Shown piece by piece: positions 77 to 211 of a stretch of 232 bases of DNA; positions within the stretch are counted from its first letter, which is position 1, and each line of letters opens with the position of its first letter. The stretch comes from Escherichia coli. Lineage in GTDB: Bacteria > Pseudomonadota > Gammaproteobacteria > Enterobacterales > Enterobacteriaceae. Below the pieces are notes generated by a model. It was not told the origin of the DNA and did not search any database. It saw only the letters and a list, made by a program, of their open reading frames with translations. The stretch lies in the NCBI RefSeq assembly GCF_003334405.1, contig NZ_QOWM01000074.1; one strand, written 5' to 3'. The position numbers and the translations under genes were made by a program.

Positions 77-110
77 CTTGCTGGTTTGTGAGTGAAAGTC
101 GCCGACCTCA

Positions 111-148
111 ATATCTCAAAACAGACTGTTAAGTCTTGTTTGATATAT
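111..148 (+). other. Imperfect AU-rich RNA hairpin immediately upstream of boxA (boxB-like position)
   Basis: Inverted repeat paired by hand. Apical stem 123-127 (AGACT) pairs with 132-136 (AGTCT) around loop GTTA (128-131). Continuing outward: C122-G138 with T137 bulged, A121-T139, A120-T140, A119-T141, C117-G142 with A118 bulged, T116-A143, a C115/T144 mismatch, then 111-114 (ATAT) pairs with 145-148 (ATAT). No folding energy was computed. Confidence 0.55.
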
Positions 149-149
149 T

Positions 150-186: not shown

Positions 187-211
187 CACTGAACAATGAA
201 AGTTGTTCGTG
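187..211 (+). other. GAAA (GNRA) tetraloop hairpin in the spacer
   Basis: GAACAA at 191-196 pairs perfectly with TTGTTC at 203-208 (6 bp). The loop is TGAAAG (197-202), where T197/G202 can form a U-G wobble closing a GAAA tetraloop. The stem extends with C189-G209, A188-T210 and C187-G211, leaving T190 bulged. Confidence 0.55.

Follow-up and report, generated by a model that had tools for sequence, protein, structure and literature searches.

The RNA hairpin at positions 187–211 of the Escherichia coli rrnG spacer is, with a probability of about 0.6, selected for its ability to pair with itself and not for its sequence, as the apical stem-loop of the rrnG pre-23S leader, in the StyR-44 region; its bases would thereby be kept out of the way of leader–trailer pairing. 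The hairpin as such is already known: it is part of the curated Rfam family StyR-44 and lies in pre-23S spacer RNA that is discarded. Four other accounts, in which it is a GNRA contact, part of an autonomous small RNA, a signal to RNA polymerase or a tolerated insert, are ranked lower and are taken up below together with the observations that bear on them.

The window, i.e. the whole stretch of 232 nt that was analysed, is 100% identical (232/232 bases) to rrnG of E. coli K-12 MG1655, as a megablast search of 5,426 complete E. coli genomes shows. Its MG1655 counterpart is annotated in RefSeq as the gltW–rrlG spacer of rrnG. The window contains the tRNA-Glu (UUC) gene gltW at positions 1–76 on the plus strand (ARAGORN; Rfam tRNA model, 60.1 bits; RefSeq annotation) and 156 of the 184 bases that separate tRNA-Glu from 23S rRNA. 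Rfam RF01830, StyR-44, matches the plus strand at positions 154–232 with 91.8 bits (gathering score 54; E = 3.1e-15; model positions 1–79 of 107), and the match ends at its 3′ side solely through the end of the window. The spacer identity and the StyR-44 match bear out the sequence-only reading, which had placed the hairpin in the leader of the 23S precursor. The block at 150–232 is conserved ahead of 23S in each of the seven K-12 operons (MG1655 spacer alignment). Rfam matches to 6S-Flavo, mir-8315, DnaX and STnc410 are also found in the window; these score far less than their gathering thresholds and were dismissed as chance matches. In the E. coli genome collection, 10 of ~37,600 copies of the spacer block are on plasmid-annotated records, and the cloning strains XL10-Gold and Stbl4 have the block at nine places instead of seven.

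The hairpin (plus strand, 187–211) has a lower stem in which CAC (C187, A188, C189) pairs with GUG (G209, U210, G211), a bulged U190, and an upper stem in which GAACAAU (G191 to U197) pairs with GUUGUUC (G202 to C208) around the loop GAAA (G198 to A201). RNAfold gives the structure (((.(((((((....)))))))))) at −8.1 kcal/mol, with U197·G202 as the closing pair. An inverted-repeat finder returns GAACAA (191–196, plus strand) and UUGUUC (203–208, plus strand) as the 5′ and 3′ arms of a perfect 6-bp stem; at the DNA level the arms GAACAA/TTGTTC are 100% complementary with 6 nt between them. Inverted repeat and RNAfold thus agree with the original description of a 6-bp stem, a GAAA loop and a U-G closing pair, and its coordinates are correct. 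The fold has a z-score of −3.09 against 200 dinucleotide-preserving shuffles, of which 2/200 are equally stable, and it corresponds to the apical helix of the Rfam StyR-44 consensus structure. Folding of the precursor leader had been proposed as a check, and the hairpin forms in each context tried: in isolation, in the fold of the whole spacer, and in the ensemble of leader plus trailer, where its pair probabilities are ≥0.90. The minus strand folds more weakly (−6.1 kcal/mol, with a hexaloop), and G·U pairs are found at several hairpin positions in the alignment of 28 variants described below. The constraint therefore acts on the RNA of the plus strand.

Two enzymatic or regulatory roles that a short stem-loop might suggest were tried and rejected. 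The hairpin does not resemble an intrinsic terminator: only 4 of its 10 pairs are G-C, the next bases are AGUCUCUC, and neither a terminator-like nor a promoter-like site was found on either strand of the window. RNase III substrates need more than ~10 bp of duplex, and the hairpin, with only ~10 bp, is too short to be one. A search of the literature for chemical probing or mutational data on the 187–211 hairpin found none, and papers on RNase III and RNase E targets do not mention it. Strings of the hairpin and flank sequences gave one irrelevant match in the literature, apparently a primer, and a time-resolved DMS study deals with mature 23S positions only.

The closing base at position 197 (plus strand) is polymorphic within K-12. 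It is U, in a wobble pair with G202, in rrnG and rrnH, and C in rrnA, rrnB, rrnC, rrnD and rrnE (MG1655 alignment). The sequence-only reading gave K-12 a C at this position and took T197 as a substitution. This is right for the five operons with C and wrong for rrnG and rrnH, and the idea of a substitution relative to K-12 has to be given up: the window itself is K-12 rrnG, and reference spacers that have T thus already exist. Since the C version and the window are both K-12, the difference is one between operons of a single genome.

Allele frequencies were obtained from exact 59-mer variants in complete E. coli genomes (~5,430 matching records, ~37,600 copies). C197 with GAAA is found in 4,893 records, C197 with GAGA in 3,871 and T197 with GAAA in 2,241, and an exact copy with a U-A closing pair is present in 2. 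A197 and G197 occur in one record each of the ~5,430 (NZ_AP027764.1, 4925856–4925914, and NZ_CP104077.1, 530256–530314), neither with a compensating change at 202; they may represent new mutations or sequencing errors. In E. coli the position is therefore almost always C or T, which is the toggle that had been proposed as a check.

The predicted energies are −10.3 kcal/mol with C at 197, −8.1 with U, −6.3 with A and −7.1 with G, and the core hairpin is predicted to form still with A or G. Both C197 and U197 have G202 as partner, with closing-pair probabilities of 1.00 and 0.95, and the C to U change was correctly judged to be neutral for structure. T197 is a common K-12 allele, and the change from C-G to U·G, at a predicted cost of ~2 kcal/mol, leaves the fold as it is. 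Relatives that share the same stem have a closing C-G pair in E. coli and Mangrovibacter, U-A in Kosakonia and S. enterica diarizonae, and U·G in rrnG and rrnH; with the U-A pairs of Kosakonia and S. enterica diarizonae, the classic series C-G, U-G, U-A is seen at this pair. The C/T alternation might be an old transition polymorphism that was spread by gene conversion, rather than the result of selection alone against A and G. Another toggle between K-12 operons, from U·G to U-A, is found in the first hairpin after the tRNA (window positions 82–107), which has GUGA...UCGC in rrnG and rrnB and UCAC in rrnC and rrnE.

Self-pairing is supported by comparison with other genomes. Species-representative genomes were scanned with a pattern in which only the flanks are fixed, CAAGCTG-N6-GAAA ... 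GAGTCTCTCA, and 60 stretches were returned; because the flanks are fixed in the pattern, the sample is biased toward spacers that keep them. Three of the stretches (L017, L051 and L052) are chance matches. Two from metagenome-assembled genomes (L059 and L062) have a spacer identical to that of E. coli and add no variant. These two lie on contigs labelled ‘uncultured Desulfovibrio sp.’ (L059, 13647–13697) and ‘Oxalobacter sp.’ (L062, 12855–12905), the spacer is of the C197/GAAA type, and contamination or misbinning is the probable source.

Between the flanks there are 28 distinct variants from 12 genera, i.e. Escherichia, Enterobacter, Klebsiella, Citrobacter, Kosakonia, Mangrovibacter, Pseudenterobacter, Franconibacter, Salmonella, Providencia, Xenorhabdus and Photorhabdus. 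All 28 fold to a single hairpin, with stems of 7–12 bp and energies of −5.7 to −19.2 kcal/mol, and the distance between the conserved flanks ranges from 21 to 35 nt. For 11 representative variants, two of them metagenomic, the z-scores are −2.8 to −5.3. When the 28 variants are aligned with MAFFT and the E. coli pairing scheme is imposed, 83.8% of the cells are paired compared with 67.5% in shuffled alignments, and none of 500 shuffles reaches this value. Two-sided changes are found at 9 of the 10 hairpin pairs, and the covariation score is 0.503, compared with 0.224 in shuffled and 0.06–0.15 in slid controls. It should be pointed out that the alignment is blind to structure and misaligns the inner stems of long variants, and was kept as a conservative test. 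Stem substitutions that disrupt pairing without compensation had been named as evidence that would count against a structured element; in the 28 variants pairing is maintained.

A metagenome scan with different flank requirements gave five loci, of which three are 16S–tRNA–23S spacers from more distant gammaproteobacteria. Each of the three carries a hairpin at the corresponding site, flanked by AAGCUGA and (G)UYCUCAA. Identity to E. coli is 91% in 16S (1,247 nt, measured for L068 alone) and 81–85% in the first part of 23S, where Providencia has 93%. In these spacers (L068, 1942–2004; L071, 577–647; L069, 511–597) the order of boxA, AAGCUGA, hairpin and (G)UYCUCAA is kept, and all fall short of the StyR-44 gathering score. 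The L068 hairpin, AUAUCAUU-GAAA-GAUGAUAU, has a U·G-closed GAAA loop as well. No operon that lacks a hairpin at the 187–211 position was found among the sampled lineages.

The loop behaves differently from the stem. In rrnG it is GAAA (198–201, plus strand), a tetraloop of the GNRA type closed by U197·G202, and in rrnB it is GAGA (MG1655 alignment). Among the 28 distinct variants a GNRA loop (GAAA, GAGA, GCGA or GCAA) is present in nine and UCCG in one, that of S. enterica diarizonae; the other variants, among them those of Klebsiella, Citrobacter, Providencia and Enterobacter, have loops of 3–6 nt with unrelated sequences. This bears on the proposal, put forward in the sequence-only reading, that GAAA docks specifically into a tertiary receptor or onto a protein, a contact through which the hairpin would serve processing or assembly. 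GNRA loops do recur on at least five stems (those of the E. coli type, E. albertii, Enterobacter sp. EA-1, Pseudenterobacter/Franconibacter and Photorhabdus), a GAAA loop closed by U·G is found again in one distant metagenomic spacer, and within the family with the GAACAA stem the loop bases vary yet remain in extra-stable tetraloop classes. However, with GNRA in only 9 of 28 variants and with UCCG or unrelated 3–6-nt loops in the others, a conserved GNRA-specific contact is unlikely. The UCCG loop of S. diarizonae belongs to the UNCG type, which is incapable of contacts of the GNRA kind, and the presence of both GAAA and GAGA in one K-12 genome, as in thousands of E. coli genomes, argues against a receptor specific for GAAA. 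In addition, an excess of GNRA and UNCG loops is expected from selection for hairpin stability alone. A specific docking function thus appears very improbable.

The presence of GNRA loops on several unrelated stems suggests that stable tetraloops are favoured, and the loop pattern fits selection for a stable hairpin that forms fast. The recurrence of GNRA on at least five stem backgrounds is a hint that more than pairing as such may be preferred. Like the GNRA and UNCG tetraloop hairpins of rRNAs, the element has a four-base loop, GAAA, on a Watson–Crick stem, and its relatives alternate between GAAA, GAGA, GCGA, GCAA and UCCG. Swaps among stable tetraloops are a known feature of hairpins in mature rRNA. 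Unlike the rRNA hairpins, this element is in a discarded spacer, no receptor for it is evident, and many of its relatives have caps other than tetraloops.

The second line of evidence concerns the surroundings of the hairpin in the precursor. The leader was co-folded with its own 23S–5S spacer for 18 operons, seven from K-12 and 11 from five other genera (the genera being Escherichia, Enterobacter, Pseudenterobacter, Citrobacter, Klebsiella and Providencia). Two leader strands, both on the plus strand, are predicted to find partners there: 161–182 in the distal trailer and 214–229 in the proximal trailer. Within the first, AAUCUG (161–166) is predicted to pair with trailer CAGAUU, UCA (169–171) with UGA, and GCUGAAAAUU (173–182) with GAUUUUCAGC; within the second, UCUCUCA (214–220) would pair with UGAGAGA and UUCGC (225–229) with GCGGA. 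The hairpin at 187–211 has no predicted trailer partner and is almost wholly internal to the leader, although a few co-folds have 1–4 bases at its foot paired with the trailer. In the co-fold of Providencia rettgeri the second proximal helix is AUCUC:GAGAU, with both strands changed. It should be noted that 214–229 lies inside the block GAGUCUCUCA that the search pattern requires, and the leader flanks cannot show covariation on the leader side.

At the junction the trailer has a single unpaired base in the co-folds, and the hairpin would therefore be the third arm of a three-way junction that extends the 23S leader–trailer helix outward. From these minimum-energy co-folds and the preserved complementarity we infer that the long 23S leader–trailer helix contains a three-way junction, one arm of which would be the hairpin, formed by the leader alone; a functional role of the hairpin is putative as well. 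The literature on the 23S leader–trailer or RNase III stem includes the work of Young and Steitz in 1978, Brosius and coworkers in 1981, and Liiv and Remme in 1998. On either side of 23S, leader and trailer pair into helices on which 50S biogenesis depends (Gemler et al., 2024, PMC11404451; PMC10250234), and the RNase III site is near the 23S ends (PMC11404451), outside the window. Compared with that helix, the flanks of the hairpin (161–182 and 214–229) are predicted to pair with the 23S–5S spacer as its outward extension, and the hairpin itself would be a leader-only side arm outside the duplex, with the RNase III site further downstream. The side structures of the pre-16S leader–trailer helices of Enterobacteriaceae (Warner et al., 2023, PMC10250234) share this design, a conserved long helix with diverse, lineage-specific extras; their system is 16S, whereas the hairpin discussed here would be an arm of the 23S leader. 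The leaders of rrnG (L001) and rrnD (L003) are 9 nt shorter than the others and are without a small CGAUGAUGAAUCG side hairpin. In the other five operons (L002 and L004–L007) this hairpin lies between the window block and the RNase III stem, just past position 232.

A different structure for the flanks is given by the Rfam family. StyR-44 was described as S. Typhi npcRNA 44 (Chinni et al., 2010, PMC2943607), and the window matches it in sequence, hairpin and position. That account places StyR-44 immediately upstream of 23S in all operons and treats it as a 109-nt growth-regulated fragment that is possibly just a metastable maturation intermediate (PMC2943607). In the local Rfam model 173–182 pairs with 221–229, and this outer helix is present in the window as an inverted repeat. 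It has all 9 pairs and is invariant in Escherichia, Enterobacter, Klebsiella, Citrobacter, Kosakonia and Salmonella. In Providencia, Photorhabdus, Xenorhabdus and Mangrovibacter only 4–6 of the 9 pairs can form, and 173–182 is unchanged there. Since the outer helix is lost in four genera in which 173–182 stays the same, the leader–trailer context is preferred for the full precursor. The outer helix, which competes with leader–trailer pairing, probably does not describe the full precursor, and the family structure may describe the excised fragment only. In Escherichia and its close relatives the local fold is as possible for the flanks as trailer pairing, and it might prevail as long as no trailer has been transcribed or once RNase III has cut.

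These observations also bear on whether StyR-44 is an autonomous small RNA that includes the hairpin, with the local fold 173–182/221–229, the hairpin atop it, and a trans-acting function of its own. There is a Rfam family with just such a local structure, its outer helix has 9 of 9 pairs in six genera, and a growth-phase regulated Northern signal is reported for S. Typhi and E. coli (PMC2943607). The discoverers themselves, however, allow for a mere metastable intermediate of rRNA maturation, and the passage on StyR-44 in their paper names no target or phenotype (PMC2943607). The outer helix is almost invariant where it is intact and hence has no support from covariation, it falls to 4–6 of 9 pairs in the four genera named above, and all co-folds predict trailer pairing for its bases. 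An independent small RNA is therefore quite unlikely as an explanation of the hairpin. The leader–trailer reading is retained for the full precursor.

The hairpin adjoins the rrn nut-like element of the 16S–23S spacer, which was reportedly described by Berg, Squires and Squires in 1989 and which here comprises a boxA-like sequence at 150–162 and a boxB-like hairpin at 110–149. The boxA-like sequence, UGCUCUUUAAAAA (plus strand, read from the sequence), is the same in each of the seven K-12 operons, has a single mismatch to the rrn leader boxA UGCUCUUUAACAA and lies just upstream of the leader–trailer strand; it may be the second boxA. The long boxB-like hairpin upstream of it (110–149, plus strand, apex at 123–136) is seen in the spacer fold and is putatively called boxB from position alone. 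It occurs in three unrelated versions in the seven K-12 operons, each of which is self-complementary: AGACU-GUUA-AGUCU in rrnG, a UUCG-capped stem in rrnB, rrnC and rrnE, and a third version in rrnA, rrnD and rrnH. A second boxB–boxA–boxC set has been placed upstream of 23S (PMC10250234; PMC6614801); boxC is described as a linear motif, and boxB is 5′ of boxA in rrn nut-like sites (PMC6614801; PMC10250234). The 187–211 hairpin starts 25 nt 3′ of the boxA-like sequence, and by order it is therefore not boxB.

This proximity raises the question of whether the hairpin is a co-transcriptional signal to RNA polymerase or the antitermination complex, i.e. a pause, an anti-pause or a part of the spacer nut-like site. 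That it begins 25 nt past the boxA-like element (150–162) would suit such a role, as would the second box set upstream of 23S and the proposal that the leader is tethered by the complex close to the RNA exit channel, within reach of the trailer (PMC10250234; PMC6614801). But boxB precedes boxA and boxC is linear, and a hairpin that follows boxA fits neither. A stem that varies from 7 to 12 bp and a flank distance of 21–35 nt are hard to square with precise placement, and the window has no terminator-like site. A polymerase signal is thus highly improbable.

The following course of events would be consistent with the hairpin as a self-paired arm. The 25 nt would fold right after transcription, just 3′ of the spacer boxA. 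Having no partner in the trailer, they would be kept aside by folding on themselves, and 161–182 and 214–229 would be set side by side. The trailer, made ~3 kb later, could then pair with both leader segments almost continuously and give the three-way junction with the hairpin as its third arm. RNase III would then cut nearer to 23S, outside the window, and the leader piece would be freed and decay. The stable hairpin plausibly prolongs the life of this piece, perhaps enough for it to have been cloned as StyR-44.

Close to this is the view that the hairpin has no positive function and is a tolerated palindromic insert, whose self-complementarity is kept since mispaired versions would disturb neighbouring pairings. 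The sequence, the stem length and the loop all vary freely, and the bases are discarded after processing, as might be expected of such an insert. The CGAUGAUGAAUCG side hairpin, missing from rrnG and rrnD, indicates that arms of this type can be dispensable. On the other hand, the hairpin is at the exact position in every lineage sampled, including those with 81–85% identity in the 5′ part of 23S, and no sampled operon is without it. This account overlaps the preferred one and differs from it only in whether the arm helps or does not hurt; it can be given a minor share of the probability.

Perhaps the hairpin has a more specific part to play, as a hinge that stays in place while a co-transcriptional switch sets the timing of 50S biogenesis. 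The local StyR-44 fold (173–182/221–229, with the hairpin on top) would form first, and invasion by the trailer ~3 kb later would convert it to the three-way junction; until then the local fold would shield both leader–trailer strands from mispairing with nascent 23S domain I. This extension is speculative and, on present evidence, rather doubtful.

As a discovery the hairpin carries little weight: it belongs to a curated Rfam family, and the role of the spacer in leader–trailer pairing, RNase III processing and antitermination has been studied since about 1980. What is useful are the corrections, i.e. that the window is K-12 rrnG, that T197 is a frequent allele, that the GNRA loop is not conserved, and that the outer helix of StyR-44 is doubtful for the full precursor. 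If the arm is required for 50S biogenesis, it would offer a small, defined handle for the mutagenesis of pre-23S RNA, which Warner et al. (PMC10250234) want revisited. Should the switch prove true, the persistence of the hairpin at 81–85% 23S identity would mark a required cis-acting element of ribosome assembly and not a tolerated insert.
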